Of a DNA stretch of 58,559 nt, positions 5,304 to 27,315 are shown piece after piece; within the stretch, counting starts at the first letter, position 1; every line of letters starts with the position of its first letter. The DNA comes from an uncultured Dehalococcoidia bacterium (GTDB lineage Bacteria > Chloroflexota > Dehalococcoidia > Lucifugimonadales > OSU-TB39). The notes below the pieces were generated by a model. The model was given only the letters and a program-made list of their open reading frames with translations. It did no database searches and was not told the origin of the DNA. Both the position numbers and the translations under genes were made by a program. The stretch is from assembly GCA_964645865.1 (NCBI GenBank), contig CAZYCG010000002.1, forward strand, positions 1 through 58,559. Direction: 5' to 3'.

Positions 5304-6737
5304 TTAAGAAACGGGAGGGATTGCTTGAATCCATGGATTGATGGATTCAAGTTTTAGGGAAGCTGCCAGAACTGTTGATTCACAATTCGGTTTGCCAATT
5401 ATATGTAACCCGACTGGCAGTTTGGTTTTAGTAAAACCACAGGGTATGCTCGCGGCAGGATTTCCTATCATATTTATTGGAAATGTATTTGGAAATGCCC
5501 CCCAGAATTCGTTTGTTTCAACGCCATTTATTTTGGTTGGAGGGTTACCAACAGGAAATGCAGGAACCGAAGTAGTAGGAGTGAATATCAAATCGAATTT
5601 TTCGAAAGCTGACGCAAATTTTGCTTTGACAATATCAATTTCACCAACTGCGCGAGCATAATCAACACCTGTTACCTTGGATCCGTATTCAAGACATTTC
5701 TGTGTATACCAAGCTAGATGAGTTTCGTTATTTTTATATAATTTGTGATATGAAGCAAATACGTTCGTGCTGAATAATGTCCAAAATGCTTCAAATGGTT
5801 GGCCTATGTCAATTTTTACTAAATCAACATTCGGGTTTTGTTGCAGAGAATTGACTGTTTTTTTACAGATGGAAATAACTTCTTCGTCTATCTCCCCAAA
5901 ACCAAAATGATCAATCCACCCAATTCTTAATTTATCAAAACTGGCTTCTTTGAGATTAGATAGTTCATTGAAGGTTTTTTTAAGAGAGATTGGATCTCTT
6001 TCATCATGTCCGGCAATAACGCTTAATAGCATCATCGAATCTTTCACTGTTCTAGTTATGGGACCAGCTTGACTGGTTTGGTTTGCAATAGGGGTTGTGG
6101 GAAAGCCGGGGTAGCGCGGTATTGTTCCCAATGTGGGTTTTATACCGTAAACACCACAAAAGCTAGCAGGTATTCTTATTGAACCTCCGCCATCGCTTCC
6201 TGTGGCTAAAGCACATAAACCAGCTGATATAGCAGAAGCAGCTCCACCGCTTGAACCTCCGGAGGTCATTTCATTGTTCCATGGATTTCTACAATGATTT
6301 TGCCAGCTCGAGTTGCCCAATCTATTTTCTGTTGACCCCAAGAGTCCGAATTCTGGTGTGTTTGTTTTGCCTATAATAATGGCTCCTGATTTACGTATTC
6401 TTTCAACCACAATCGAATCAAATTCGGGAATTTTATCTTGAAAAACTAATGATCCCATTGTTGTTTTTATTCCCTGGGTAGATTCGAGGTCTTTTATTGA
6501 TATTGGTATGCCATGAAGCGGACCTAGTGTCTCCTTATCCATTATGGCTTTTTCAGCGGACTTAGCGTTTTCTATGGCTTTTTCTGGAGTAGTAGTTATG
6601 AAAGAATTTATATGTTGATCCAAGTTATCTATCCGATCAAGGTAAATCTGCGTTATTTCAACTGGTGAAATTTCTTTATTTAACATCAGATCATGCAGTT
6701 CTGCAGCAGGTTTAAAGGCCAGTTCTTTAGAGTTCAT
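5304..6737 (-). CDS. amidase-signature family amidase
   Basis: 477 aa. GGSSGGAASAISAG and GSDGGGSIRIPASFCG amidase-signature motifs. Substrate unknown. Confidence 0.85.
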   Translation of the reverse strand: MNSKELAFKPAAELHDLMLNKEISPVEITQIYLDRIDNLDQHINSFITTTPEKAIENAKSAEKAIMDKETLGPLHGIPISIKDLESTQGIKTTMGSLVFQDKIPEFDSIVVERIRKSGAIIIGKTNTPEFGLLGSTENRLGNSSWQNHCRNPWNNEMTSGGSSGGAASAISAGLCALATGSDGGGSIRIPASFCGVYGIKPTLGTIPRYPGFPTTPIANQTSQAGPITRTVKDSMMLLSVIAGHDERDPISLKKTFNELSNLKEASFDKLRIGWIDHFGFGEIDEEVISICKKTVNSLQQNPNVDLVKIDIGQPFEAFWTLFSTNVFASYHKLYKNNETHLAWYTQKCLEYGSKVTGVDYARAVGEIDIVKAKFASAFEKFDLIFTPTTSVPAFPVGNPPTKINGVETNEFWGAFPNTFPINMIGNPAASIPCGFTKTKLPVGLHIIGKPNCESTVLAASLKLESINPWIQAIPPVS

Positions 6738-6919
6738 TTTTCACCTTGTCAAATTAATCAATGTAATAAATTCGAGTCTAACATCGGTTTTTATCACGGT
6801 CAACGAATATAAAAATAGTATAATATCTTTAATTAACGACTCACGGCTAAGTGATTAGTCTACTTATCAAGGTGCATTAAGCTTTGATAATCCGTTAACT
6901 AAGTTAATTTGAAAAGAAA

Positions 6920-7279
6920 ATGAAAAACAAATCAGAAAATGTTAACGTGCGGATTTTGTATTGGAAAGAAATTCCTTTACAAGTAGAAGTTGAGGTTTTT
7001 GGAAATAAGTTGTCACGTCAGCTAGAGGATAGATTTCAAGAGGGTGTTGACGCTATAGCGATGTTTGAAAATAGTTACGGGTCGGATGATTATTTAAATG
7101 GGTTCTTGTGGGGTGAAAGTTTTTTAGTACAAGGGGAAATAAATAGCGTGTTGGAAGATAAGGTTAATTGTTTTAACAAGAAATTCCCTAAAGACTTTGT
7201 ATCCAGAATTAGAGACTTACAGAAGCAAGGCAAGAGAAAAACTATGCCCGGTTCTGCAGACCATTGGATGGAATGTTAG
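6920..7279 (+). CDS. small conserved protein of unknown function, first gene of the corrinoid operon
   Basis: 119 aa, soluble. VRILYWKEIPLQVEV...GVDAIAM...DDYL..W resembles the ~100-aa 'virulence factor'-annotated domain that I recall next to folate/methionine methyltransferase genes. This is memory only. It lies 12 nt upstream of the next gene. Confidence 0.45.
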   Translation: MKNKSENVNVRILYWKEIPLQVEVEVFGNKLSRQLEDRFQEGVDAIAMFENSYGSDDYLNGFLWGESFLVQGEINSVLEDKVNCFNKKFPKDFVSRIRDLQKQGKRKTMPGSADHWMEC

Positions 7280-7291
7280 GTAAAACGTGGA

Positions 7292-8185
7292 ATGGATTTA
7301 CTAAAAAGAATTGAAAGTGGCGTAACTCTTATATCAGATGGTGCAACTGGAACATACTTACAGAGTAACGGGTTGGAACCCGGAGGCTGTCCTGAGCATC
7401 TGAATTTAACCAATCCTGAACTCATTGTTAAAATGGCAAATGACTATTTTAACAATGGAGCAGATTTAGTTATAACTAATTCATTTGGTGGCAATCCTTT
7501 CATGCTAGATAAATATGGTCTAAGAAAGGAATTGGGCGTCATTAATAAGAAAGCAGCACAACATGCTAAAAGTGCGTGCCCTGCCGGGAAATTTGTTTTA
7601 GGTTGTGTTGGTCCTACTGGCGAATTTTTACAACCGCTTGGTCCTGTAAGTGAAAAGGAAATGTTTACAGGGTTTACTGAACAGATCCAAGCTTTAGATG
7701 AAGGTGGAGCTGACGGTATAATAATAGAAACCATGACGTCTTTAGAAGAAACCCTTTTGGCTGTAGAATCTGCGAAACTTAACACAAATTTAGTTGTAAT
7801 GGCTACAATGACATTTGACTTAGGACCTAGGGGATTTTTTACTATGATGGGAGTTACTCCTGAAGAAGCGGTTAAGGAAATTCGCAAAAAAGGTGCAGAT
7901 GTAGTAGGTGCAAATTGTGGAAATGGTATAGAAAACATGGTTAAAATAGCTAAAATAATGAGAAATGTAGATGACGGGCCTTTAGTCATTCACAGCAATG
8001 CTGGATTCCCTAAAATTATTAATGGAAGGATAGTTTATCCTGAGACTCCTGAATACATGTCTGAAAAATTTAAAGAATTAATTGAAGCAAAAATAAATAT
8101 TATGGGAGGATGTTGCGGCACAACACCTAGCCATATTTCTGCCATACATTCTGTTGTTTCAAAATATTCAAGCAATAAAGAATAA
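7292..8185 (+). CDS. homocysteine S-methyltransferase domain protein (stand-alone MetH/BHMT-type Hcy-binding module)
   Basis: 297 aa. DGATGT, ITNSFG, GCVGPTG, GANCG and the terminal GGCCGTTPSHI (Zn-thiolate Cys set) are typical of the Hcy-binding TIM barrel. Confidence 0.88.
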   Translation: MDLLKRIESGVTLISDGATGTYLQSNGLEPGGCPEHLNLTNPELIVKMANDYFNNGADLVITNSFGGNPFMLDKYGLRKELGVINKKAAQHAKSACPAGKFVLGCVGPTGEFLQPLGPVSEKEMFTGFTEQIQALDEGGADGIIIETMTSLEETLLAVESAKLNTNLVVMATMTFDLGPRGFFTMMGVTPEEAVKEIRKKGADVVGANCGNGIENMVKIAKIMRNVDDGPLVIHSNAGFPKIINGRIVYPETPEYMSEKFKELIEAKINIMGGCCGTTPSHISAIHSVVSKYSSNKE

Positions 8186-8205
8186 AATAACAATAAGGCA
8201 ATATA

Positions 8206-8880
8206 ATGAATGAAATAGATAATAATGGAAACATCAAAGATGTTTTAAATAGAATTGGAAGTTGTTCAGAACTAATATCGATTGACCCTTATTTTAAGGA
8301 TATTAGTGTGGGACTATACGAGAAAAATGGTATTTACACTGTTTGGTCTTTTAGCAAGGTTTCGGGCGTTTCTAATAGGATAAGCGAAATAAGAGATCAA
8401 TTAGTTAATTTGGGCGGAATGGTACCTGTGCCGGATACGAATAACCAAGTTAAATTTCCTAATGGGGAATTATATGATAGACCAGTTAAATTTTTGATAA
8501 AATTAGCTGTAGAGAAGCCTTCTGACTATAGACATCCAGATGGTCAGATTAGGATTAAAGATCTTCGTTCTCCCCTGACCTTGATTATCAATTCTCATGA
8601 CGAAAATGGCAAAAGGATCTATGAAGTAACAACTGAAGGGGAATTTAAAAACCCAGAACTACGAAAACGTGCAACAGTTCAAGGATTTATTAGATATGGG
8701 GAGATGGAAAAAATAGACAATACCAAAGTAATGTTTAACGGAGGATATAGACGGGATGAATTAATCCGTATTATTCTTCCTTACGCTCGAAATATAACAG
8801 GAACCCAAGATATGTTAGATGCTGACTCGATGCGAGGCCAAATGACTACAAATACTCTTGGGTTTTCAACGCAAGAGTAG
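8206..8880 (+). CDS. hypothetical protein embedded in the corrinoid operon
   Basis: 224-aa soluble ORF, 20 nt after the Hcy methyltransferase and 42 nt before the URO-D gene. I recognise no motif. Confidence 0.5.
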   Translation: MNEIDNNGNIKDVLNRIGSCSELISIDPYFKDISVGLYEKNGIYTVWSFSKVSGVSNRISEIRDQLVNLGGMVPVPDTNNQVKFPNGELYDRPVKFLIKLAVEKPSDYRHPDGQIRIKDLRSPLTLIINSHDENGKRIYEVTTEGEFKNPELRKRATVQGFIRYGEMEKIDNTKVMFNGGYRRDELIRIILPYARNITGTQDMLDADSMRGQMTTNTLGFSTQE

Positions 8881-8922
8881 AAACTTTACACCTATTAACT
8901 TAGGAAATTTTGGAGGGAAGCA

Positions 8923-9963
8923 ATGGTTATAACTGAAAAAATGACGCCGAGAGAAAGAGTTATGAATGCCTTGAACGGATTGCCGGTAGACCGCACTCCT
9001 GTCTCGAATCCAACTAATGTAGCAACAGTTGAACTCATGGATTTGGTAGATGCACCTTTTCCAGATGCATGTCGAGATCCGGAACTTAATGCAAGATTAG
9101 CTGCTACCGGATATACAGAATTAGGATTTGATTCAATAGCACCATATTTTACTATTATTCAGGAATCCTCAGCATTGGGTTGCGAAATGCAATGGGAACA
9201 GAAAGATAACTGGCCTACAGTAAGAATGAGTAATCCGATTTGGAAATCTATTGAAGATATCAATATTCCAGATAATTTTTTGCAACATCAAGATAATTTG
9301 GCAATTATAGATTCAATAAAAATACTAAAGCAAGAATTCGGAAATGAAGTTGCTATCATTGGAAAAACTATGGGTCCATGGACTCTTGCGTATCATGTAT
9401 TTGGAGTAGAAACCTTTTTGCTTATGTCGATTGATGATCCAGAATTGACTATCAAATGTCTAGACAAATTGAAAGAGATATCAGTTTTATTTGGACAGGC
9501 TCAAATTGACGCAGGAGCAGACGTTTTAACGTATCCAGACCATGCAACAGGAGATTTGGTAAGTGGTGAATATTATAAAAGATTTTTGCTAGATATACAT
9601 CAAGAAGCAGTAGAGGATTTAAAAGTACCTCTTATATTACATATTTGCGGTTATACTTTAGACAGGATGGATTATATTGCACAAAATAAAATGGCTGCCT
9701 TTCATTTTGATTCTAGAAATGATCCTGAAAAAGCGATGGAAATAGTCGATGGCAGGATACAACTTGTGGGCAATGTTAATAACCCTGTAACTTTGTATAG
9801 TAAAGGTACGCAGGAAGTTAGAGAGGAAGTTTATAGATGTTTAGATGCTGGGGTTCCTTTAATTGCTCCTGAATGCGCTATACCATTAGCTACTAAATTA
9901 GAAAATTTGCTTGAAATACCAAAGGCGGTAAAAGACTGGACTGAGGAAAACTTGTCAAAATAG
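8923..9963 (+). CDS. uroporphyrinogen-decarboxylase (URO-D) family corrinoid methyltransferase, MtaA/MtbA/MtsA/CmuA-like
   Basis: 346 aa. HxC zinc motif ILHICGYT plus downstream Cys in LIAPECAIP. Overall length and layout match MtaA-type enzymes. Confidence 0.8.
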   Translation: MVITEKMTPRERVMNALNGLPVDRTPVSNPTNVATVELMDLVDAPFPDACRDPELNARLAATGYTELGFDSIAPYFTIIQESSALGCEMQWEQKDNWPTVRMSNPIWKSIEDINIPDNFLQHQDNLAIIDSIKILKQEFGNEVAIIGKTMGPWTLAYHVFGVETFLLMSIDDPELTIKCLDKLKEISVLFGQAQIDAGADVLTYPDHATGDLVSGEYYKRFLLDIHQEAVEDLKVPLILHICGYTLDRMDYIAQNKMAAFHFDSRNDPEKAMEIVDGRIQLVGNVNNPVTLYSKGTQEVREEVYRCLDAGVPLIAPECAIPLATKLENLLEIPKAVKDWTEENLSK

Positions 9964-10008
9964 ACAGAATTCAACCTAACACAAAATAAATGGAGAAATA
10001 TTAGCAAT

Positions 10009-11031
10009 ATGTCGGATAATTTCATAATTGTAGGTGAAAATATTCATGCTACCAGGGTATTCCGTTCTGGCGGTAAAAGAGTAGTTAAAACTGATGACGG
10101 ATTTGAAGCTGTCAGCTATAAGAACGACTTAGATGAGCAAAAACTGATGAAAGTACCCGATTGGTTTAAAGAAACTCAACCCTATCAGCAAGGGCAAATC
10201 AAGCATTTTCTTATAGCCATGACTAATTTAATAAGTAACGATGATGATGTCAGGTTGGAAGGAGAACAATATATTCAGAATGCAGTTTATAGACAAATTA
10301 AAGCAGGGTCGAATTATGTTGATATTAATGTGGATGAGGTGCATTATGATTTAGAAATACAAAAAAAATGTATGGCTCGTACGATGGAGGTTGCGCAGAA
10401 GGTTTCATCAGTACCTATCAGCATAGATTCATCTAATTCCGATATTATAGAATCAGGTTTAAAAGCATATAAAAGTAACGATGTTCCCCCTTTAATCAAC
10501 TCAGTAGCATTTGAACGTCCTGAAGTTTTCGAGATGGCATTAGAATATAAAGCAAATGTTATTGCAATGGCAACTAGTGAAACAGGTATGCCTGAAGATG
10601 AAGATGATCGTATAGAAAATGCAAAAAAGATAATAGAGGAATTGGTACGAAGAGGATTTTCTTTAGAGGAAATTTATTTAGATGCGATTGTTTTTCCAAT
10701 TTCAGTAAATTCTGAGTATGGAAATCATTATTTCAATGCAGTGACACAATTAAGGGAAGAGTATGGAAGCCAATTACACATTGGCATGGGTCTTAGCAAT
10801 GTTTCATTTGGAATGCCAATGCGAAAATTAATTAATCAGGCGTTTATATACTTAGGTCTTGAAGCAGGAATTGATGCGGGGTTAATTGACCCAATACAAA
10901 TAAAATTGGACGAAGTGCATAACGTTGATATAAGTTCTGAAAAAATGAGCTTGGCAATAGATATGTTGACAGGAAAAGATGAGTTTTGTGTTAATTATCT
11001 GCAAGCCTATAGAGATGGCCGGCTTCAATAA
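10009..11031 (+). CDS. pterin-binding methyltetrahydrofolate:corrinoid methyltransferase (MetH pterin module / AcsE / MtrH-like)
   Basis: 340 aa. IVGENIHATR near the N-terminus, NVDE, and GLSNVSFGMP are characteristic of the pterin-binding (DHPS-like) barrel. Confidence 0.82.
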   Translation: MSDNFIIVGENIHATRVFRSGGKRVVKTDDGFEAVSYKNDLDEQKLMKVPDWFKETQPYQQGQIKHFLIAMTNLISNDDDVRLEGEQYIQNAVYRQIKAGSNYVDINVDEVHYDLEIQKKCMARTMEVAQKVSSVPISIDSSNSDIIESGLKAYKSNDVPPLINSVAFERPEVFEMALEYKANVIAMATSETGMPEDEDDRIENAKKIIEELVRRGFSLEEIYLDAIVFPISVNSEYGNHYFNAVTQLREEYGSQLHIGMGLSNVSFGMPMRKLINQAFIYLGLEAGIDAGLIDPIQIKLDEVHNVDISSEKMSLAIDMLTGKDEFCVNYLQAYRDGRLQ

Positions 11032-11109
11032 GTCTATTTAGGTTACTATTTACCAATAGTTCAGTATAATAATATTTTAAAAATTTAGATTTAAATTTGG
11101 AGTTTGAAG

Positions 11110-11841
11110 ATGCCGATAGTAAATGAGGGTGTTTTGCAAGAGATGAAGCATATTGCCAATCCATCCGAATTAAAACACATTCAAGAACTGTATGAACAAA
11201 CCGAACCATTGATGCAGGAAATTGCATATGCATTGATAACAGGTAATGATAAGGAAGTAGATCAGCTAACATCTAAAGCGCTAGACTCAGGATTTACGGC
11301 GAATACTGTTATGGATGATGGTTTAATAGCAGGTATGGCTATTGTAGGGATAAAATTCAGAGATAATATTATTTTTGTACCTGAAGTTCTGATTTCTGCT
11401 AGAGCTATGAAAGCTGGTATGGCACACATAGAGCCGATTCTTTCAGAATCAGATATACCGCCTGTGGGCACGGTTATTATGGGCACTGTAAAAGGTGATT
11501 TGCATGATATCGGGAAAAACTTATGCATTATGATGATGAGAGGGGCCGGATTTGTAGTACACGATTTAGGGGTTGATACTAAGCCAGAGGCTTTCATCGA
11601 TGCTGTACAGGAACATGAAGCTCGCGTTTTGGGTATGTCAGCGTTGCTTACAACCACTATGCCTAACATGGGAAGAGTCATACAAGCTTTTGAAGATGAA
11701 GGTATGAGAGAGGAAGTGAAGATTATGGTAGGTGGTGCTCCAGTTACCCAAGACTTTGCTGACGATATGGGTGCTGATGGCTATGGGAAAGACGCAATTG
11801 ATTGTGTGGATATGGCAAAAACCTTAGCTTTACAAGAATAA
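11110..11841 (+). CDS. corrinoid (B12-binding) methyl-carrier protein
   Basis: Helical cap plus Rossmann B12 domain with GDLHDIGKNL (DxHxxG), GMSALLTTT (SxL) and MVGGAPV (GG). I prefer the ATG at 11110 (GGAG 8 nt upstream) over the listed TTG at 11104. Confidence 0.9.
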   Translation: MPIVNEGVLQEMKHIANPSELKHIQELYEQTEPLMQEIAYALITGNDKEVDQLTSKALDSGFTANTVMDDGLIAGMAIVGIKFRDNIIFVPEVLISARAMKAGMAHIEPILSESDIPPVGTVIMGTVKGDLHDIGKNLCIMMMRGAGFVVHDLGVDTKPEAFIDAVQEHEARVLGMSALLTTTMPNMGRVIQAFEDEGMREEVKIMVGGAPVTQDFADDMGADGYGKDAIDCVDMAKTLALQE

Positions 11842-11864
11842 CTTTAACTGATTGGAAGCAAACC

Positions 11865-12110
11865 TTGAGTTCTAATAGCATAAACAAAAACAGGTATTAT
11901 GAAAGTATAAAGAAACTCGAAGCTATATATGAAAATATAGCTACAAATGTAACAGAAGTTTCAAAATGGCGATGTCCTTACAAAGATGCCAAGGATAATT
12001 GCACTGCAAAGTTTGGTTGTAGGAATCAAGATCGGTCTATCAATGATGGATCACCCTTTCCTTGCATAGGAAGTGATAAGTTAGATTATCGTAATGCCTG
12101 GGAAGTTTAA
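11865..12110 (+). CDS. small Cys-rich hypothetical protein
   Basis: The listed ORF (11802) overlaps the corrinoid gene by 40 nt. An in-frame TTG at 11865 follows GGAAG by 6 nt and gives 81 aa. Four Cys lie in WRCPYKDAKDNCTAKFGCRNQ...PFPCIG. Coding status is not certain. Confidence 0.35.
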   Translation: MSSNSINKNRYYESIKKLEAIYENIATNVTEVSKWRCPYKDAKDNCTAKFGCRNQDRSINDGSPFPCIGSDKLDYRNAWEV

Positions 12111-12217
12111 TAAATTAATACGAGTTAGTATTAATGAGTTATTTAGATAGTTTATCCAACTTTAAGTTTATGGATTGTTTGATTTAATTTTCAAAACTTA
12201 TCAGGAATTATAATGAT

Positions 12218-13831
12218 ATGTCTCCTGTAAATTATGGCGACCAAAAATTAGAATCTGTTTCAAATAAAACGTTATTTGAATACGCTGATATATTGAATGT
12301 TCGCGTACCTACCTCATGTGGGCGTAATGGAAAATGTCATGAATGTATCGTAGAGGTGAAGAGAGGCATTTCTTCTTTGAATACGCCGACTCCAGCCGAA
12401 TCTTTTCTAACGCAAGGATTTCGATTGGCATGTCAGACATATATCGATGATGTCGATGCTGAAGTTCAATTTAATGTACTTCGTAGGCAACCTAAAATAT
12501 TGATTGAGTCTTCGCAAAAACGTCTAGAACTTGACGCTTTGACAAAGATGTATGATGGAAATGTATATTATGATGGCAAATTAATAGATAAATTCAAGGG
12601 TGTTATGTATGGATTGGCTATAGATATTGGCACTACTACAGTTGTAATGAATTTACTGGATTTAGAAACTGGAGAGGTTAAGTACATTACGTCTTTTGAA
12701 AACCCTCAAAAATTTGGTGGTAGTGATGTGATGAATAGAATTTCGTATGATACATCTGAATATCAAGGTGAATTACAAAAAGTAATGATTTCATCTATAA
12801 ATTTTGAAATAGGATTAATGAGCAGGCAGTTGAAATTTCACAGAAGGTGTATTTATGAAATAGTAGTGGTTGGCAATGCTACCATGAGAGATTTATTTTT
12901 TGGAGTAGATGTGACTAGTATAGGAGAAAAGCCTTACAAGTCAAAAGTTGAGATTGAATTTAACCAAAGCAAGGTTAAAACTACAGCATTAAATGCTAAA
13001 GCTAAACAAATTGGTTTGCGAGTGTTTCCCGATGCAAATGTATATGGCGGACCTTTGATTGGTTGTCATGTTGGTTCAGACGTAGCAGCTGATTTGCTTG
13101 CTGTTGGAATGGGTAACAATGAACAGATATCTATGTTAGTTGATGTTGGGACAAATACAGAAGTTGTTGTGGGCAACAAAGATAGAATGATTGCTGCTTC
13201 TTGTCCTGCAGGTCCGGCTTTTGAAGGTGGAGAAATTAAATATGGAATGCCTGCCTATGATGGCGCAATAGAACACGTTCAATTTGAAAGGGATACACTG
13301 AAATATAAAACTATATCAGGAGTTAAGCCAACAGGTATTTGCGGTTCAGGATTGATAGATCTTTTGGCGGAACTCAAAAATACGGGTAAAATGAATTATT
13401 TGGGAGTGTTGGAGAAAGGGTTGGATGAATTTATGATTGCTCCCGAATATAATCTTTCTTTGTCACGAAGCGATATCAGTGCATTAGCACAGGCAAAAGC
13501 TGCAAATTATTGCGGTCAAAAGATAGTTCTCAGAGAATATGGAATAATGCCTGAAGATGTTTCAAACATGTACATAGCGGGTGGTTTTGGGAATTATTTA
13601 GATATCAAAAATGCTATTGGAATTGGATTTATTGCGAATGTAAGACTTGAAAATATCCATAGGGTTGGTAATACAGCTCTTCAAGGAGCTAGCCAAATGC
13701 TGCTTTCAGGTCGATTAAGATCGCAAATAGAAGAAATATGTAACAATATAGAACACATTGAACTTGAAACAACGGAAGACTTTTTTGAGCTATTTGTAGA
13801 TGGATGCCAATTTAACCCGATGATTATGTAG
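12218..13831 (+). CDS. reductive activator of corrinoid proteins (RACo-type: [2Fe-2S] ferredoxin + ASKHA ATPase)
   Basis: 537 aa. N-terminal plant-type ferredoxin Cys pattern (SCGRNGKCHECIV...LACQT). ASKHA phosphate motifs GLAIDIGTTTVV and VDVGTNTEVV. Confidence 0.85.
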   Translation: MSPVNYGDQKLESVSNKTLFEYADILNVRVPTSCGRNGKCHECIVEVKRGISSLNTPTPAESFLTQGFRLACQTYIDDVDAEVQFNVLRRQPKILIESSQKRLELDALTKMYDGNVYYDGKLIDKFKGVMYGLAIDIGTTTVVMNLLDLETGEVKYITSFENPQKFGGSDVMNRISYDTSEYQGELQKVMISSINFEIGLMSRQLKFHRRCIYEIVVVGNATMRDLFFGVDVTSIGEKPYKSKVEIEFNQSKVKTTALNAKAKQIGLRVFPDANVYGGPLIGCHVGSDVAADLLAVGMGNNEQISMLVDVGTNTEVVVGNKDRMIAASCPAGPAFEGGEIKYGMPAYDGAIEHVQFERDTLKYKTISGVKPTGICGSGLIDLLAELKNTGKMNYLGVLEKGLDEFMIAPEYNLSLSRSDISALAQAKAANYCGQKIVLREYGIMPEDVSNMYIAGGFGNYLDIKNAIGIGFIANVRLENIHRVGNTALQGASQMLLSGRLRSQIEEICNNIEHIELETTEDFFELFVDGCQFNPMIM

Positions 13832-13859
13832 GTATGATAATTAATAAAGAGGTGTGAAT

Positions 13860-14861
13860 ATGCCAACAAAAAAAGTACTGATAACAGATTATGTATGGCC
13901 TTCAGTGGAACCAGAAAAGAAAGTGTTGGCCAAACTCGGCATTGATCTTATAGTTGCTCCTGATGGCAATGAGGATACTTTAATAGATATGGCTAAGGAA
14001 GTTGATGGGATTTTAACTTGTTTTGCCAAGGTTACAGATAATGTCGTTAAGTCAGCGAAAAATTGTAAGGTAATAGGTAGATTCGGAGTCGGTGTTGACA
14101 ACATTGATGTACAAGAGGCAACTAGGCAGGGCATAATTGTGACATATGTGCCGGACTATTGTGTAGATGAAGTGTCTGACCATGTAATTGGCTTATTATT
14201 GGCATGGAATAGGAAAATAGTTTTACATAATAATGATACTAAATTATCAGGTTGGGGCAATGCTGGATTGGGTATGCGTATAATGAGGTTAAGGGGCAAA
14301 AAATTAGGAATTATCGGTTTTGGAAGAATAGGTAGGATGGTAGCTGAAAAAGCACAATCCTTTGGATTAGATGTTTTATCTTTTGACCCAATGATTGAAT
14401 CTGATTTTATGAATCAATTGGGGGTTAAAAAAGTTGAATTGGACGATTTATTGGCTGAGTCGCATTTTGTTACTTTACATTCGCCACTTATACCTGCTAC
14501 TGAAAATATGTTTGGCAATGAACAATTCAAAATGATGAGAAATGACGCATTTCTTATTAACTGTGCTCGAGGAGGATTAATTGATGAAGATGCTTTACAT
14601 GAAGCATTAAACTCGCAAAATATTGCTGGAGCAGGGGTAGATGTTTTGGTTGATATAAAACCTGATACAAATCATAGGTTAATTAAAAATCAAAACGTCA
14701 TAGTGACTCCTCACACCGCATTTTTTTCTCAGGAAGCTGTACTTGAACTAGAAGAACGAGCGGCAGGTCAGGTTGGGAACGTTTTGCTTGGCAAAATACC
14801 CGAAAATATAGTTAACGTTGGATTATTGAAAGCAGATAACTTGAGAGCCGATATTAAGTAA
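13860..14861 (+). CDS. D-isomer-specific 2-hydroxyacid dehydrogenase family protein
   Basis: GIIGFGRIGRMVAEKA NAD fold, NCARGGLIDE, TPHTAF. ATG at 13860 lies 7 nt after AGAGG (the listed GTG at 13854 is less likely). Confidence 0.85.
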   Translation: MPTKKVLITDYVWPSVEPEKKVLAKLGIDLIVAPDGNEDTLIDMAKEVDGILTCFAKVTDNVVKSAKNCKVIGRFGVGVDNIDVQEATRQGIIVTYVPDYCVDEVSDHVIGLLLAWNRKIVLHNNDTKLSGWGNAGLGMRIMRLRGKKLGIIGFGRIGRMVAEKAQSFGLDVLSFDPMIESDFMNQLGVKKVELDDLLAESHFVTLHSPLIPATENMFGNEQFKMMRNDAFLINCARGGLIDEDALHEALNSQNIAGAGVDVLVDIKPDTNHRLIKNQNVIVTPHTAFFSQEAVLELEERAAGQVGNVLLGKIPENIVNVGLLKADNLRADIK

Positions 14862-14867
14862 TAAAAG

Positions 14868-16337
14868 TTAACCTGAAGTTGTTGGGTATGAACCATATTC
14901 AATAATTATTTCCGCATCTTCAATACGTAGAGGACTTATAAGGTCTTTCGCTCTTTCCACTAAAATAAACTCAAGAATATTCTTTCCTTTACAAGGACGA
15001 ACTTTTTCTAGAGTGAATTCAAGCCACATCAAGTTATATGGTTTAGCATCTCCGTAACTTCTTTTACAGGTTTCATTTATTATGGATTTTCCGTTTAAAT
15101 TGAAATTTATCTTGTCTGAGGAGACGAGGTCATTTATGCGTACTTTTAAGGTGATATGAGTTATTCTGTCAGTTAAATTTTTTATGTCATCAGCAATATG
15201 AAATTCTATAGGATAAGATATGCCGGCTTTTTCGATTGGTATAGTAATCGGAAGGTTTGTTTTGTAATCAACTCTTGAGAGAATGTCAGTCGATCTATTG
15301 ATAAAATAATGTTTATTTTTTTCCTTCAACACTGATTTATTTCCAATATTTGAGAGTATGCTTGTTTCTATTGGGGATAATGGCCATTGCAGAGAGTGGG
15401 TATAAAGACCATCAGCACCTTTATCATAAAAATTGGATGCTGCACCATACATCATTTCGGGGGTTGCATATTCCAATTGATAGAGTTCATTTTCATTATC
15501 GTGATATCTTGGTTGGAGCATTGGATAAACTGATGTATTAGAATTTTTAGTTAAATCAATTAACCATTCTATTGGCATGTTAGAATCTAAAATATTGTAT
15601 GCGTATATCATTGGGGTGACATAATCTAATAGGTTCTCAGATATCATTTTTTTCACATCGATTCCGGCAGATAAATTTAATTTTTCAGTCGGGTAAATTC
15701 TAGCACCCAAAATCTTTGGCTTATTACGGTTTTTAACCATCGAAGATATCTCTGAAACCCAATCAGTTATAATGCCTTTATCTTTATATCTGCGATTTTC
15801 AGGTAATAAATAACTGTCTCCGCCAGGTGGGGCTGCAAAATCAAGTTCCAAACCGTCAGTTTCGTAATCATCAGCAAGTTCTTGTAAAACTTTTGATTGA
15901 TGGTTTCTAACCTCCTGATGTAAAAAACCGCCACCTCCGTTTTCTAGTAGAAATTCAGGTTTTATTCCGCCGTATGAACCTAGTCTCAAGCTAGCAAAAA
16001 ATTCCATGTTTTGTGAATGAGCTTTATCTATAAGGACTGATAATGGATCTATTCCTTTATCGGTCAAACTTTGTAAGTTATTCCATAGTCGCCAATAAGC
16101 TGCCTGCTTAAATCCGGGCGAATTTATTCCATGTTCGCCATGTTTGAACTGCATTCCTACTTTTGAATTGTAAAAAAGACCATCAGCTCTAGCTACTCCA
16201 TAAATAAAAGTATCTATGGAGGTATTTGAACATTCATTTATAGGTCTGCATGCATCTTCAAGTGTCATTGGAGGTTCAAATACGAATAAATAGTAATGCC
16301 TAGCGTCGTTAAAATAGATTGTACGTTGTTGCTTCAC
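14868..16337 (-). CDS. hypothetical protein, possibly a glycoside-hydrolase-like (beta/alpha)8 barrel with a C-terminal beta-sandwich
   Basis: 489 aa with no signal peptide. Alternating hydrophobic/acidic segments (DGLELDF, MIYAYN, GADGLYTH) loosely recall GH-like TIM barrels. I do not recognise a defined family. Confidence 0.3.
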   Translation of the reverse strand: MKQQRTIYFNDARHYYLFVFEPPMTLEDACRPINECSNTSIDTFIYGVARADGLFYNSKVGMQFKHGEHGINSPGFKQAAYWRLWNNLQSLTDKGIDPLSVLIDKAHSQNMEFFASLRLGSYGGIKPEFLLENGGGGFLHQEVRNHQSKVLQELADDYETDGLELDFAAPPGGDSYLLPENRRYKDKGIITDWVSEISSMVKNRNKPKILGARIYPTEKLNLSAGIDVKKMISENLLDYVTPMIYAYNILDSNMPIEWLIDLTKNSNTSVYPMLQPRYHDNENELYQLEYATPEMMYGAASNFYDKGADGLYTHSLQWPLSPIETSILSNIGNKSVLKEKNKHYFINRSTDILSRVDYKTNLPITIPIEKAGISYPIEFHIADDIKNLTDRITHITLKVRINDLVSSDKINFNLNGKSIINETCKRSYGDAKPYNLMWLEFTLEKVRPCKGKNILEFILVERAKDLISPLRIEDAEIIIEYGSYPTTSG

Positions 16338-20621: not shown

Positions 20622-21335
20622 TCAAGCTTTAGGTTTTGAATAAGCGTACGCTATTGTAGTTCCAGTTCCTATAAATATTAGGCCAAATAATGCCAGAAGC
20701 ATTATTGCCATGTCTAAAGATTGTCCACCTGTAGAAGGTAGCGTTGCGGCTGGTATAGATATAGGAACAGTAGTATCGACACCCGATAAACTTGTACTAG
20801 CTGATTCAGCTTGGCTTATACCAGGATGACTTTCCCAACCATTCAAAGATGCTTCTAAACCAGAAATCAATGTGTTACCGCCCGGGCCAATGTATATATC
20901 AGCTAAGCTAGTTGAATTTGCACTAGAAGCGTTTCCAGCAGCATCCCTTGAAATAGCGGACCAAGCGGAAATGTTTGCAATAGCATTGTTTATCGTAGTT
21001 GTATATGCAATTGCATCAGCATCTTCGCTCTCTGTTGCAGAGTCAAGCGCTCCTTGAGATTGGATACTAGCAGCAGATGCAAGTTCAAGTACACCGCCTG
21101 AGCCGGTGATTATATTGCTAGCTTTGTTGGCATAGCTTTGCTTATCTGCTAAAGTCGTGGCCGACTTTGCCAGATTGGCTTGAGCTAGAGCCTGTGAAAC
21201 CTCAGTTTTTAGAGATGCAAGTGTAGCATCTAGTGCCGTTGTAGCGGCAAACGCCTGAGAATTACTTCCTAATATAGCTAATGTTATCGCTATAACAGGC
21301 AAAAAAGTCTTAATAAAAAACATATATTTCTTCAT
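20622..21335 (-). CDS. secreted Ala/Ser/Thr-rich surface protein with LPXTG-type C-terminal sorting signal
   Basis: Signal peptide MKKYMFFIKTFLPVIAITLAILGSNSQAFA. C-terminal LPSTGG, then a hydrophobic stretch (LDMAIMLLALFGLIFIGTGTTIAYAY), then SKPKA. ATG at 21335 lies 6 nt after GGAGA. Confidence 0.7.
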   Translation of the reverse strand: MKKYMFFIKTFLPVIAITLAILGSNSQAFAATTALDATLASLKTEVSQALAQANLAKSATTLADKQSYANKASNIITGSGGVLELASAASIQSQGALDSATESEDADAIAYTTTINNAIANISAWSAISRDAAGNASSANSTSLADIYIGPGGNTLISGLEASLNGWESHPGISQAESASTSLSGVDTTVPISIPAATLPSTGGQSLDMAIMLLALFGLIFIGTGTTIAYAYSKPKA

Positions 21336-21571
21336 TTCGATTCTCCACACTATTTGTAGTTGAGAGACAGTTTGGACTGCTTATGCATGCCCTATTAGCT
21401 AATAAGTTATCACAAGCCAACGGTTTAGCCTAGGCTTCTGTATACCAAATTTCAATAAAGAAAAATTTTAAGTATATCTGAGGTTTATATATATAAAAAT
21501 TTAAAGTATATAAACTGGAGTTATATTTAATACAAATCTATAATTTGAAAATTCATTTCAGGAGTAAATTC

Positions 21572-25397: not shown

Positions 25398-26276
25398 TTA
25401 TATTATTTTTGACTCGTCGAGAATATTAGGTATCGTGTTTTCCCATCCGATAGCCATGACATGTATTCCATCACACATGTCTTGAATTTCTTTTATGATG
25501 TTGGCGGTAATTGAAATGCTCTCTTTTTTGATAGCATCTCTGTCGCTTAAATCAAGACTTTTAATGATATTCTCTGGTATAGATATCCCCGGCAGATAGG
25601 AGTTAAGGTAATTTGCCATTTTGGTGGATTTAAGAACAATTATCCCTGCGAGTATTGGAACATCAAATTTTTTGGCAGTTATCATAAATTTTTCCAAAGC
25701 ATCAGGTTCGAATATTGCCTGCGTTTGGAAAAATTGAGCTCCACTTGAAACCTTTTCTTCCATTTTGACGAATTCAGTCTCTAGGTCTTTGGCGCCAGGA
25801 TTTACTACAGCGCCTCGAAAGAATTCAGGATTACCTTCAAGAGCATTTTTGCCAAGGTCTTTTCCTGTCTGCATACTCTTCATTGCATCTAGAACTTGTG
25901 TGGAATTTAGGTCAAATACAGGTTTAGCTTCTGGGTGGTCGCCATGTTGTGGTGGGTCACCGCTCATTGTCAGAATATTCGTTATGCCTAGAGCACTAGC
26001 AGCAATTAAGTCTGCCTGTATTGCTATTCTATTTCTATCTCTACCTGTGATTTGCAATATTGGTTCAATGCCTCTATGTTTCAAAAAATGTGATACTGCA
26101 ATCGGTGCCATTGTCATATTAGAACCTGCCGAATCTGTAATGTTAATGGCTACTACTCGATCCTTTAACATGTCTGCTTTTTTAAATAGTTTTTCTAAGT
26201 CAGTGCCTTTCGGAGGATTTAGTTCACAAGTTACGGTGAACTTTCCAGATTTTAAATTAGTTGAAAGTTTACTCAA
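25398..26276 (-). CDS. metF: 5,10-methylenetetrahydrofolate reductase
   Basis: 292 aa. TCELNPPKG, AINITD, LQITGRDRN and SGDPP are MTHFR barrel motifs. Confidence 0.88.
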   Translation of the reverse strand: MSKLSTNLKSGKFTVTCELNPPKGTDLEKLFKKADMLKDRVVAINITDSAGSNMTMAPIAVSHFLKHRGIEPILQITGRDRNRIAIQADLIAASALGITNILTMSGDPPQHGDHPEAKPVFDLNSTQVLDAMKSMQTGKDLGKNALEGNPEFFRGAVVNPGAKDLETEFVKMEEKVSSGAQFFQTQAIFEPDALEKFMITAKKFDVPILAGIIVLKSTKMANYLNSYLPGISIPENIIKSLDLSDRDAIKKESISITANIIKEIQDMCDGIHVMAIGWENTIPNILDESKII

Positions 26277-26412: not shown

Positions 26413-27315
26413 ATGTCTATTGTGCTTGATGGTAAAGCGATTGCAGATAAATTGACACAATCTGTAGCTGATGAAATAAATTCAATAAAAAAAGCTAATG
26501 CTAGATTTGCGCCGGGATTAGCTGCTGTTTTAGTTGGAGAAGACCCAGCATCTAAAGTGTATGTGAGAAACAAGAAAAAATCAGCAATAGGTATTGGAAT
26601 GGAAGCCTTGGATTATTATCTTCCAGAATCAACTACCCAAAAAGAACTAGAAGAGTATGTCAGTAAATTAAGTGAAGATGTTTCTGTAGATGGGATATTG
26701 GTGCAATTACCACTACCCACACATATTGATCAAGAAAAAATAATTGATGCAATAAGCCCGGATAAAGATGTTGATGGATTGCATCCATATAATGTAGGAC
26801 TTCTAGTTAAAGGGCAACCTAGATTTGTTCCTGCCACTCCAGCTGGTGTTCAGCATATATTGGTTGAGAGTGAAATAGAAGTTTCTGGAAAGCACGTAGT
26901 AATATGTGGAAGAAGTGAAATAGTTGGTAAACCTTTAGGGTTACTACTGATGCAACGTAATAAAGGCGCGAATGCGACTGTCACCGTGTGTCACAGCAGA
27001 ACTGAAAATCTTCAAAATATTACTGCGCAAGCAGATATTCTTATTGCAGCGGTAGGACAACCAAATTTTATTAGGGCAGACATGGTAAAAAAAGGTGCTG
27101 TTGTAATTGATGTAGGTACAAATCGCGTACAGGATATGAGTCGCAAATCAGGATATAGGTTAGTAGGAGATGTAGATTTTGAAAATGTGAAAAATATTTC
27201 ATCAGCAATAACACCGGTTCCTGGAGGAGTCGGTCCTATGACTATCGCTATGCTTTTAAAAAACACACTTGAATCCGCTAAAAGAAAAAATCTAGTTTTT
27301 GATAAGATTACTTAA
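26413..27315 (+). CDS. folD: bifunctional methylene-THF dehydrogenase / methenyl-THF cyclohydrolase
   Basis: SKVYVRNKKK, GKHVVICGRSEIVGKPL, PVPGGVGPMTIAML. Confidence 0.95.
   Translation: MSIVLDGKAIADKLTQSVADEINSIKKANARFAPGLAAVLVGEDPASKVYVRNKKKSAIGIGMEALDYYLPESTTQKELEEYVSKLSEDVSVDGILVQLPLPTHIDQEKIIDAISPDKDVDGLHPYNVGLLVKGQPRFVPATPAGVQHILVESEIEVSGKHVVICGRSEIVGKPLGLLLMQRNKGANATVTVCHSRTENLQNITAQADILIAAVGQPNFIRADMVKKGAVVIDVGTNRVQDMSRKSGYRLVGDVDFENVKNISSAITPVPGGVGPMTIAMLLKNTLESAKRKNLVFDKIT

Follow-up and report, generated by a model that had tools for sequence, protein, structure and literature searches.

We examined a 58,559-nucleotide (nt) stretch of contig CAZYCG010000002.1 from an uncultured Dehalococcoidia bacterium of the SAR202 group (Chloroflexota), referred to below as the window, for the function of a plus-strand operon at positions 6920-14861. 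Taken as a whole, this operon is on balance best explained as a B12-dependent hub for methyl transfer, built from several subunits in the manner of MtgCDE (split MetH). Going by its homology to systems proven by genetics, the hub probably acts as a methionine synthase in SAR202 and is possibly the only one there. Functional statements throughout, among them which way ORF4 runs and on what substrate, and what ORF3, ORF7 and ORF9 do, are what we infer from homology, gene fusion and synteny of the nine open reading frames (ORFs). The initial annotation of the window had offered two options, a split methionine synthase or a branched demethylase. Both are compatible with the evidence presented here, but they are not alternatives, since MtgBCDE of Ruegeria pomeroyi does both, one corrinoid protein and one pterin methyltransferase serving methionine synthesis as well as substrate demethylation (Mausz 2025, PMC12478193).

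Separate MetH-like modules in one operon

Eight plus-strand ORFs occupy positions 6920-13831 and are separated by gaps of 12, 20, 42, 45, 72, 23 and 107 nt, in agreement with the coordinates and the 12-107 nt spacing first reported for them. Each of the domain calls of the initial annotation was upheld when the ORFs were searched with profile hidden Markov models (Pfam and NCBIfam). ORF2 (297 amino acids (aa), 7292-8185, +) is a homocysteine S-methyltransferase module of the MtgE/Bmt/MetH-Hcy type (PF02574 S-methyl_trans, E 8.5e-65). Its best PDB match was the homocysteine module of T. maritima MetH (1q7m, E 3.5e-47), with BHMT far weaker, and the NCBIfam models for the N-terminal half of YitJ (265 bits) and for an alphaproteobacterial 'BHMT' (225 bits) both ranked above MetH. 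The zinc-cysteine motifs of ORF2 are retained among its orthologues in related genomes (NCG in 67/69, GGCCG in 68/69).

ORF5 (340 aa, 10009-11031, +) is a pterin-binding methyl-tetrahydrofolate (methyl-THF):corrinoid methyltransferase of the MtgD/MeTr/MT-II type (PF00809 Pterin_bind, E 3.8e-22; PRK07535, 204 bits). It matched the methyltransferase II (MT-II) of the D. hafniense O-demethylase (4o0q, E 3.9e-31) and the MeTr acting on CoFeSP (2yci, E 4e-28) best among PDB entries, while the pterin modules of MetH reached only ~1e-15, about 15 orders of magnitude weaker. ORF6 (245 aa, 11104-11841, +) is a corrinoid (B12) carrier protein of the MtgC type with the domains PF02607 B12-binding_2 and PF02310 B12-binding. 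Its best PDB match was the Moorella protein 1y80 (E 4e-60), and it lies nearest to 1y80 and MttC rather than to MetH. It is 50% identical to an alphaproteobacterial MtgC-type corrinoid protein encoded beside DUF1638 and a RACo-type activase, and its DxHxxG motif is kept in 62/62 orthologues. ORF6 scored under the cut-off of the NCBIfam MtgC exception model (207 against 370), those models describing the MtgC of anaerobes and archaea.

The cluster holds, as stand-alone proteins, the homocysteine methyltransferase, pterin methyltransferase, corrinoid protein and RACo-like activase of the split MetH/MtgCDE arrangement, with no AdoMet (S-adenosylmethionine) activation domain (PF02965); the DUF1638 partner of that arrangement is absent from it. 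Nearly all window ORFs of at least 110 aa were scanned for domains, and neither an MttB/MtaB/MtmB-type gene, MetH or MetE nor PF02965 was found in the cluster or elsewhere among these ORFs. The absence of an MttB/MtaB/MtmB-type enzyme and of an AdoMet reactivation domain, reported from the letters of the DNA, thus held in profile scans of the window.

A reductive activase with a putative detached domain

ORF8 (537 aa, 12218-13831, +) is a RACo/RamA-type ATP-dependent reductive activase with Fer2 (E 4e-08), Raco_middle (PF17651, E 2e-39) and RACo_C_ter (PF14574, E 6e-73) domains; the RACo_linker domain was not detected in the profile search of this protein. The scores with AcsV (332 bits) and RamA (145 bits) fell below the cut-offs of these models, and the 2Fe-2S cysteine pattern is kept in 54/54 orthologues.

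The first gene, ORF1 (119 aa, 6920-7279, +), encodes a stand-alone PF13769 ('Virulence_fact') domain (E 2.4e-10). When ORF1 was compared with plasmids by tblastn, a single match was obtained, in Terrarubrum flagellatum (Hyphomicrobiales), where a 760-aa 'virulence factor' (L076, 8986-11268) shares an operon with a DUF1638 protein and a B12-binding protein, the latter being the corrinoid protein to which ORF6 is 50% identical. The 760-aa protein consists of PF13769, Fer2, RACo_linker, Raco_middle and RACo_C_ter domains; ORF1 aligns to its first 100 residues (31% identity, E 3e-14), and ORF8, over its full length, aligns to the rest of it (28% identity, E 9e-66). Because PF13769 is fused to RACo domains in Terrarubrum, ORF1 would be the detached N-terminal domain of the activase and part of the corrinoid-reactivation module, which supplies the assignment that the initial annotation had left blank for this gene. 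The Pfam name 'Virulence factor' and the RefSeq label of the Terrarubrum protein are misleading, the domain being an N-terminal module of RACo/RamA-type activases.

ORF4 is a zinc methyltransferase of the MtaA/CmuA family

ORF4 (346 aa, 8923-9963, +) is a single-domain zinc methyltransferase of the MtaA/CmuA family with the URO-D fold (PF01208, E 9e-66). It scored above the cut-offs of the MtaA/CmuA subfamily models (TIGR01463, 248.5 against 235.4; NF004889, 262 against 244) and below those of the equivalog models (MtaA_Meth, 230 against 400; MtbA, 205 against 600). The best PDB match was M. mazei MtaA (4ay7), which aligned over its full length with 32% identity (E 2e-51). H240, C242 and C318 of ORF4 align with the zinc ligands of MtaA, and among the orthologues HxC is present in 73/73 and PxC in 70/73.

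An exhaustive search of representative proteins returned 2426 relatives of ORF4, of which the nearest outside SAR202 are 40-52% identical; the only one named in the cluster look-up was a Caproiciproducens protein of the 'MtaA/CmuA family'. A word-indexed homologue search listed only Chloroflexota orthologues of at least 76% identity, and a plasmid collection gave only two weak matches at 25% identity. Fusions of a URO-D domain to a B12 domain (~510-630 aa, the CmuA architecture) account for 7 of the top 150 ORF4 relatives, at 31-41% identity, and the B12 half of the closest of them (P0375, 41% identity) matches ORF6 at E 1.8e-51. Because such fusions exist and the closest carries a B12 half resembling ORF6, ORF4 is predicted to act on the corrinoid protein ORF6.

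In a neighbour-joining tree of ORF4 relatives, with MtaA as the sole named reference, the SAR202 proteins including their paralogues formed one tight clade, with MtaA placed farther away. Of the 103 sequences in the tree, 94 carry the H-C-C zinc triad. At one locus of a sister clade, the ORF4 relative is flanked by a gene resembling phosphotriesterase and by another distantly related to URO-D. Separately, in the metagenome protein P0438 (269 aa) a URO-D fragment runs straight into ~30 residues that match the beginning of the homocysteine methyltransferase, which suggests a lineage with URO-D immediately before, or fused to, the homocysteine methyltransferase.

Conservation and variation of the locus in SAR202

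The search of a species-representative genome collection with ORF4 recovered 75 loci, all in metagenome-assembled genomes of SAR202/Dehalococcoidia/Chloroflexota and 67-96% identical to the query, the closest being SAR202 OSU_TB39. All window proteins were then compared with the 75 loci by tblastn. The order ORF1, homocysteine methyltransferase, ORF3, URO-D, corrinoid protein, ORF7, RACo is conserved across these species-level genomes at 34-97% amino-acid identity. Whether the arrangement recurs in related genomes had been left as a check by the initial annotation; its recurrence across the 75 SAR202/Dehalococcoidia genomes is not due to chance. ORF1 adjoins the homocysteine methyltransferase gene in 62/62 loci and the latter adjoins ORF3 in 68/68, followed by ORF3/URO-D (60/71), URO-D/corrinoid (45/63, the pterin gene often lying between), corrinoid/ORF7 (55/61) and ORF7/RACo (48/53).

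Median identity among orthologues is highest for URO-D (76%) and the corrinoid protein (70%), followed by RACo (60%), the homocysteine methyltransferase (55%), the dehydrogenase encoded by ORF9 (51%), ORF7 (48%), the pterin methyltransferase (47%), ORF3 (46%) and ORF1 (44%). ORF4 is thus the most conserved gene of the cluster, and ORF4 and ORF6 are its most constrained members. Catalytic motifs are kept almost without exception across 54-73 orthologues, and ORF1, ORF3 and ORF7 are conserved over their full length at 34-96% identity, as real genes.

The pterin methyltransferase gene is mobile: it follows URO-D in ~21 loci, the window included, lies directly upstream of ORF1 in ~21 others, and is shifted by an AddAB insertion in one locus, while 18 contigs were too short to judge. 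In 13 loci that keep URO-D, the corrinoid protein, the homocysteine methyltransferase and RACo, no pterin methyltransferase gene was found within a flank of at least 3 kb, a pattern consistent with a core route that leads from URO-D via the corrinoid protein to the homocysteine methyltransferase.

Of the 75 loci, 15 have a methylenetetrahydrofolate reductase (MTHFR) gene within the cluster, in one of three forms. The first, in the L029 group, is a MetV-like DUF5981 and MTHFR pair inserted between the corrinoid gene and ORF7 (12921-13376 and 13360-14295 in L029; the same in L030, L031, L037 and L039). The second, in the L026 group, is a classical MetF, scoring above the TIGR00676 cut-off, that separates RACo from the dehydrogenase gene; in L026 it occupies 15124-16005 and is preceded at 14147-15127 by an ArsR-type helix-turn-helix domain fused to a SAM (AdoMet)-dependent methyltransferase, which may be a methionine- or SAM-responsive regulator (also in L028, L032-L034, L038, L040 and L067). 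The third is a 631-aa fused homocysteine methyltransferase-MTHFR protein (YitJ-like) between ORF7 and RACo (L015, 4497-6392; L071, 3404-5272); the available contig of this lineage showed no ORF1, ORF2 or ORF3 upstream of URO-D. The recruitment of MTHFR in three forms ties the hub to methyl-THF.

The window itself has one MTHFR, encoded by metF (25398-26276, -), of the YitJ C-terminal type (PF02219, E 2.7e-43; C-terminal half of PRK08645, 244 bits), which scored far below the classical MetF models and has no MetV-like gene adjacent. It lies beside folD (26413-27315, +), encoding a methylene-THF dehydrogenase/cyclohydrolase (THF_DHG_CYH_C, E 1e-69; THF_DHG_CYH, E 2.8e-39). The MTHFR of the L029 group matches the same model as the window metF, while the L026-group copy is a classical MetF. 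Although unlinked to the operon, the window metF is likely a functional partner of the hub. The earlier proposal that metF and folD process its methyl-THF therefore gains indirect support from the 15 loci with an internal MTHFR gene.

A second URO-D gene was found between ORF3 and ORF4 in the L029 group (8859-9905 in L029) and in L008. The L029 copy is 68% identical to ORF4, so that it reflects a within-family duplication. Among the inserted genes examined in the variant loci no MttB/MtaB/MtmB-type methyltransferase was found; one 484-aa insert of L008 gave no identification. This ORF (12415-13869, between the pterin methyltransferase and corrinoid genes) has no Pfam or NCBIfam match, its length falls in the range of MttB/MtaB-type methyltransferases I (MT-I), and it may not be a real gene, as the opposite strand has a 381-aa ORF that overlaps it.

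The initial annotation had ended the operon at 13831; the boundary is probably 14861. ORF9 (335 aa, 13854-14861, +) encodes a D-isomer 2-hydroxyacid dehydrogenase (2-Hacid_dh_C, E 1e-53) that resembles PGDH (267 bits) or glyoxylate/hydroxypyruvate reductase (glyoxylate reductase model, 219 bits), both scores lying under the NCBIfam cut-offs. The dehydrogenase gene adjoins RACo in 33 of 45 related loci, and where it does not, the examined inserts (L026/L033-type and L064) are MTHFR or methyltransferase genes. Because ORF9 starts only 22 nt past the RACo gene, no plus-strand terminator-like site was found across 6500-15200, and the gene after ORF9 converges from the minus strand, ORF9 is probably the last gene of a unit spanning 6920-14861.

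ORF3 and ORF7, small proteins apparently specific to Chloroflexota

The initial annotation had seen no domain in the ORFs at 8206-8880 and 11865-12110, and neither has a Pfam or NCBIfam match. ORF3 (224 aa, 8206-8880, +) is an alpha/beta protein and a fixed member of the cluster with 247 homologues, of which all that are named are hypothetical proteins of SAR202/Dehalococcoidia/Chloroflexota. A Pfam scan of 30 family members at E values up to 5 gave scattered single matches only. Its C-terminal tail RGQMTTxTLGF is invariant, predicted to be disordered and docking-peptide-like. For a confident AlphaFold2 model of ORF3 (pLDDT 87, pTM 0.81), no significant fold match was found in the PDB by Foldseek (best E 0.026, TM ~0.2; ARPC2 and PUR-repeat noise), and the predicted structure may represent a new fold. 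DUF1638 (PF07796) had no match in any cluster ORF. The possibility that ORF3 is a divergent DUF1638 was ruled out by comparison with a DUF1638 sequence (hhalign probability 0.1%).

ORF7 (~81 aa, 11865-12110, +) is a small cysteine-rich protein with 896 homologues, of which those named are all hypothetical proteins of Chloroflexota. It carries the invariant pattern RCPYK-x4-C-TA-x-F-x-C-x-NQ-xn-C-x-GSD-x-LDYR-x-AW, and the four cysteines (C-x8-C-x5-C-xn-C) are present in 61/61 orthologues. Only chance matches came from a PDB sequence search. The structural model (pLDDT 65) has a confident N-terminal helix followed by a disordered, low-confidence cysteine-rich part, poor modelling that would be expected for a metal- or cluster-dependent fold. 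ORF7 is a candidate metal or Fe-S accessory of the activase. Because it lies between the corrinoid and activase genes and DUF1638 is absent, participation in reactivation or electron delivery would be its most economical role.

Proposed mechanism and the direction of ORF4

In the mechanism we propose, the corrinoid protein ORF6 would cycle between Co(I) and methyl-Co(III), carrying the methyl group. ORF5 would exchange methyl between ORF6 and methyl-THF, which MetF and FolD would make or consume, and the zinc enzyme ORF2 would discharge methyl-Co(III) onto homocysteine to give methionine. Cobalamin oxidised to Co(II) would be re-reduced at the expense of ATP by ORF8 ([2Fe-2S] plus ASKHA ATPase), replacing the AdoMet activation domain of MetH, with ORF1 supplying the N-terminal PF13769 domain of the activase as a separate protein. 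ORF7, and perhaps ORF3, would be lineage-specific helpers of reactivation or complex assembly, where Alphaproteobacteria use DUF1638. ORF4 would dock on ORF6 as a third, folate-independent port. In the reading we prefer, it would load methyl from a small methylated sulfur compound (methylmercaptopropionate (MMPA), dimethyl sulfide (DMS) or methanethiol) or from a methyl halide, and this methyl would pass to homocysteine and, through ORF5 and MetF, to the THF one-carbon (C1) pool. We favour ORF4 as the methyl-entry enzyme because ORF4 and ORF6 are the most constrained members of the cluster, relatives of the two are fused, and 13 lineages have no pterin methyltransferase nearby. The zinc-thiolate site of ORF4 points to sulfur chemistry or, as in CmuA, to methyl halides. 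Among MtaA-type enzymes MtpA provides a precedent, as it specifically interconverts MMPA/mercaptopropionate and methyl-cobalamin (bioRxiv 10.1101/548461).

Several observations weigh against this proposal. At the loci of the ORF4 sister clade, mostly on short contigs, no corrinoid, homocysteine methyltransferase or RACo neighbours were found, and the pairing with the homocysteine methyltransferase is therefore specific to SAR202 on this evidence. No transporter or substrate-specific catabolic gene that would point to a donor was found in the operon. In Alphaproteobacteria, DUF1638 co-occurs almost perfectly with the RamA-like activase (PMC5764234), and the SAR202 cluster lacks it. Phaeobacter Bmt uses dimethylsulfoniopropionate (DMSP) or betaine directly in vitro, and enzymes of the ORF2 type can act without a corrinoid. 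Finally, the preprint on MtpA describes the loading of Co(I) from a thioether as thermodynamically unfavourable (bioRxiv 10.1101/548461), which argues against methylthio donors and for methyl halides or thiol methylation.

A stricter version of the donor-side proposal holds that ORF4, ORF6, ORF2 and the activase form a folate-independent B12 methionine synthase that uses an environmental methyl halide or a DMSP-derived methylthio compound, that the pterin methyltransferase and MetF are optional, and that ORF3 and ORF7 are previously unrecognised components of corrinoid reactivation or complex assembly. We regard it as tentative and, taken whole, rather unlikely.

A donor-side role of ORF4 is plausible, and acceptor-side thiol methylation would be equally compatible with its MtaA-like sequence. 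The same hub could run with ORF4 in the acceptor direction, methyl-THF entering through ORF5 and leaving through both ORF2 and ORF4, the latter methylating a second thiol-like nucleophile such as sulfide, methanethiol, mercaptopropionate, a CoM (coenzyme M)-like sulfonate thiol or selenide; the operon would then encode a methionine synthase together with a B12-dependent S-methyltransferase. We think this arrangement unlikely, while rating it only somewhat below the preferred one. ORF4 stands on the MtaA/MtbA (methyl-corrinoid:thiol) side with its zinc triad intact, and MTHFR recruitment fits methyl-THF as the donor. For these enzymes, passing methyl from methyl-Co(III) to a thiolate is the thermodynamically easier direction; transfer by MtpA from methylcobalamin to mercaptopropionate is robust, and the reverse was seen only at high substrate concentration (bioRxiv 10.1101/548461). 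Methyl-sulfur or methyl-selenide chemistry has been proposed for MtaA-like Mlp proteins by Kountz and Balskus (PMC10418091). On the other hand, 13 loci have no nearby pterin methyltransferase gene, although it could lie elsewhere in these genomes; there is no described need for such a methylated thiol in SAR202; and the fusions among ORF4 relatives share the architecture of CmuA, a donor-side enzyme.

It is improbable, in our estimate, that the cluster is mainly a catabolic demethylase, with ORF4 as MT-I, ORF6 as carrier, ORF5 as MT-II and ORF8 as activase feeding THF-linked oxidation, while ORF2 only shares the operon and works on its own as a homocysteine methyltransferase that needs no corrinoid (of the Bmt, MmuM or YitJ type, with DMSP, betaine, S-methylmethionine or AdoMet as donor), and SAR202 methionine is made by another enzyme. 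Such a division would agree with the closeness of ORF5 and ORF6 to demethylase-type MT-II and corrinoid proteins rather than MetH modules, with the cofactor-free activity of Phaeobacter Bmt in vitro, with the N-terminal half of YitJ as best NCBIfam match of ORF2, and with ORF9, which could be a serine-cycle-type hydroxypyruvate reductase. However, ORF2 adjoins the activase domain ORF1 in all 62 loci and shares a unit with the corrinoid protein and RACo throughout SAR202; the L015/L071 homocysteine methyltransferase, fused to MTHFR, is inserted between ORF7 and RACo; and the homologous module is genetically part of the split synthase of Phaeobacter (PMC5764234). Moreover, the 13 loci keep ORF2 without a nearby MT-II, an enzyme that one would expect any system serving only demethylation to THF to retain.

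The least probable of the readings, and a very improbable one, makes ORF4 an O-demethylase or haloalkane MT-I that harvests lignin-like methoxy groups or methyl halides from refractory dissolved organic matter: ORF4, ORF6, ORF5 and ORF8 do repeat the layout of MT-I, corrinoid protein, MT-II and activating enzyme of O-demethylases and Cdm (PMC13222342), the best PDB match of ORF5 is an O-demethylase MT-II and CmuA-like fusions occur among ORF4 relatives, but ORF4 passes the MtaA/CmuA model and is 32% identical to MtaA, and its thiol-type H-x-C...C triad is present in at least 70/73 orthologues, while CdmB and the Moorella O-demethylase lack zinc (PMC13222342). Identities among family members put the comparison in scale, as methanogen CoM methyltransferases are ~30% identical to one another, and an MtbA-like clostridial URO-D protein is only ~17% identical to the O-demethylases OdmB and VdmB (PMC10418091). 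Its sequence argues for placing ORF4 with the zinc enzymes of the MtaA/CmuA type and against the O-demethylase/haloalkane MT-I clade (OdmB, VdmB, MtvB, MtoB and CdmB), and for that reason a methoxylated aromatic is less likely as donor; methyl halides, the other part of this reading, are already included in the preferred explanation.

Flanking regions and neighbouring genes

The leader (6738-6919, +) is shared with a divergent amidase gene and contains a promoter-like site at 6864-6891, which is weak evidence, the DNA being AT-rich; a promoter scan gave 55 matches against 34 expected in DNA of 35% GC and was uninformative. No cobalamin or SAM riboswitch was found in the leader by Rfam at gathering or lenient thresholds. 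The divergent gene (5304-6737, -) encodes an amidase of the amidase signature family, and a homologue of ~50-89% identity occupies the same position in ~15 related loci (e.g. L002, L003, L007, L010, L016, L029-L031, L037 and L039). Downstream, a 489-aa ORF (14868-16337, -) runs toward the operon end and has no match beyond a sub-threshold one to GHL10 (glycosyl-hydrolase-like), and a 242-aa ORF (20622-21350, -) has no Pfam match. Apart from metF and folD, the remaining ORFs scanned in the window encode housekeeping functions (pantothenate synthesis, a 2-oxoacid dehydrogenase complex, YidC, SerRS, FtsY and others).

Significance

In the waters beneath the sunlit ocean SAR202 ranks with the most abundant groups of bacteria, and few of its members have been cultured. 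If the operon is its methionine synthase, its growth depends on cobamides, a dependence that surveys of metH and metE alone would overlook. If the folate-independent version were true, the dark ocean's most abundant bacterial lineage would have an unrecognised B12 demand and methyl-group sink. From the MtgBCDE work it is known that, in Proteobacteria of surface waters, methionine synthesis and osmolyte demethylation are connected by corrinoid hubs that both share (PMC12478193). In SAR202 the MttB-type entry enzyme is replaced by one of the MtaA/CmuA type, which is more conserved than the methionine-forming module, and this substitution suggests that another methyl donor or acceptor is used in the deep ocean, candidates being methylated sulfur compounds or methyl halides. 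ORF3 and ORF7 are flagged as candidate new parts of a B12 reactivation machinery that works in oxic water.

Comparison with known systems

Our literature search found no paper on the SAR202 cluster or on the methionine-synthase gene content of SAR202. The closest described systems are alphaproteobacterial. Fitness genetics in Phaeobacter established in 2018 a MetH split into three parts, with a RamA-like protein and a DUF1638 protein for reactivation (Price 2018, PMC5764234); in Phaeobacter inhibens the genes are PGA1_c13370, c16040 and c13350, with c15200 for the RamA-like and c13340 for the DUF1638 protein, and the set of corrinoid protein, DUF1638 and RamA-like protein is genetically required for methionine synthesis (PMC5764234). 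Operons related to MtgBCDE have been reported in SAR116, SAR324 and SUP05, in a paper that mentions neither Chloroflexota nor URO-D-type methyltransferases (PMC12478193). The SAR202 cluster shares with split MetH and MtgBCDE the separate homocysteine methyltransferase, pterin methyltransferase and corrinoid proteins and a RamA/RACo-type activase in place of an AdoMet domain. With MtgBCDE it also has in common a corrinoid protein that would be shared by methionine synthesis and a substrate-side methyltransferase, and an associated metF paralogue. However, the substrate-side enzyme of SAR202 is a MtaA/CmuA zinc URO-D protein, whereas MtgB belongs to the MttB superfamily (pfam06253). The SAR202 cluster also lacks DUF1638, includes ORF3 and ORF7, has PF13769 as a separate polypeptide and occurs in Chloroflexota, and its parts, the homocysteine methyltransferase included, lie mostly or all in one operon, whereas in the marine proteobacteria examined mtgE is usually away from mtgBCD (PMC12478193).

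Compared with classical MetH, the three chemistries and the domain families (PF02574, PF00809, PF02607/PF02310) are the same, but the modules of SAR202 are separate, the pterin and B12 modules are nearer the demethylase type, and repair would be ATP-dependent instead of relying on AdoMet and flavodoxin. ORF4 shares with methanogen MtaA, MtbA, MtsA and MtpA the URO-D TIM barrel, the H-x-C...C zinc site and, for M. mazei MtaA, ~32% identity, and it would work with an MtaC/MttC-like corrinoid partner and a RamA-like activase. ORF4 differs from them in scoring below the equivalog cut-offs and in its partnership with a homocysteine methyltransferase; to our knowledge SAR202 uses neither coenzyme M nor methanogenesis.

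The chloromethane systems CmuAB (Methylobacterium/Hyphomicrobium) and CdmBCA (Acetobacterium dehalogenans) also combine an MT-I of the URO-D superfamily, a corrinoid module and a pterin MT-II delivering methyl to THF, with metF/folD downstream. They have no homocysteine methyltransferase, and unlike CmuA, ORF4 is not fused to a corrinoid domain; CdmB belongs to an O-demethylase-like clade without zinc (PMC13222342), whereas ORF4 keeps the zinc triad. Type 1 mlp clusters, for which a methyl-sulfur or methyl-selenium substrate is suspected, resemble the SAR202 cluster in having a bacterial MtaA-like enzyme, a corrinoid protein and a RamA/RACE activase, the THF methyltransferase being sometimes absent (PMC10418091). 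They occur in obligate anaerobes, mostly Firmicutes, contain two or three distinct Mlp lineages and have no homocysteine methyltransferase (PMC10418091), while SAR202 has one URO-D gene or two recent paralogues (68% identity) and not distinct Mlp2/Mlp3 lineages.

A methionine synthase that is fully split, repaired by RACo and at the same time serves as a branched hub is thus already published and not categorically new. New in SAR202 are the other family of entry or exit enzyme, the lack of DUF1638, two accessory proteins together with a detached activase domain, and the near-complete operon in another phylum.

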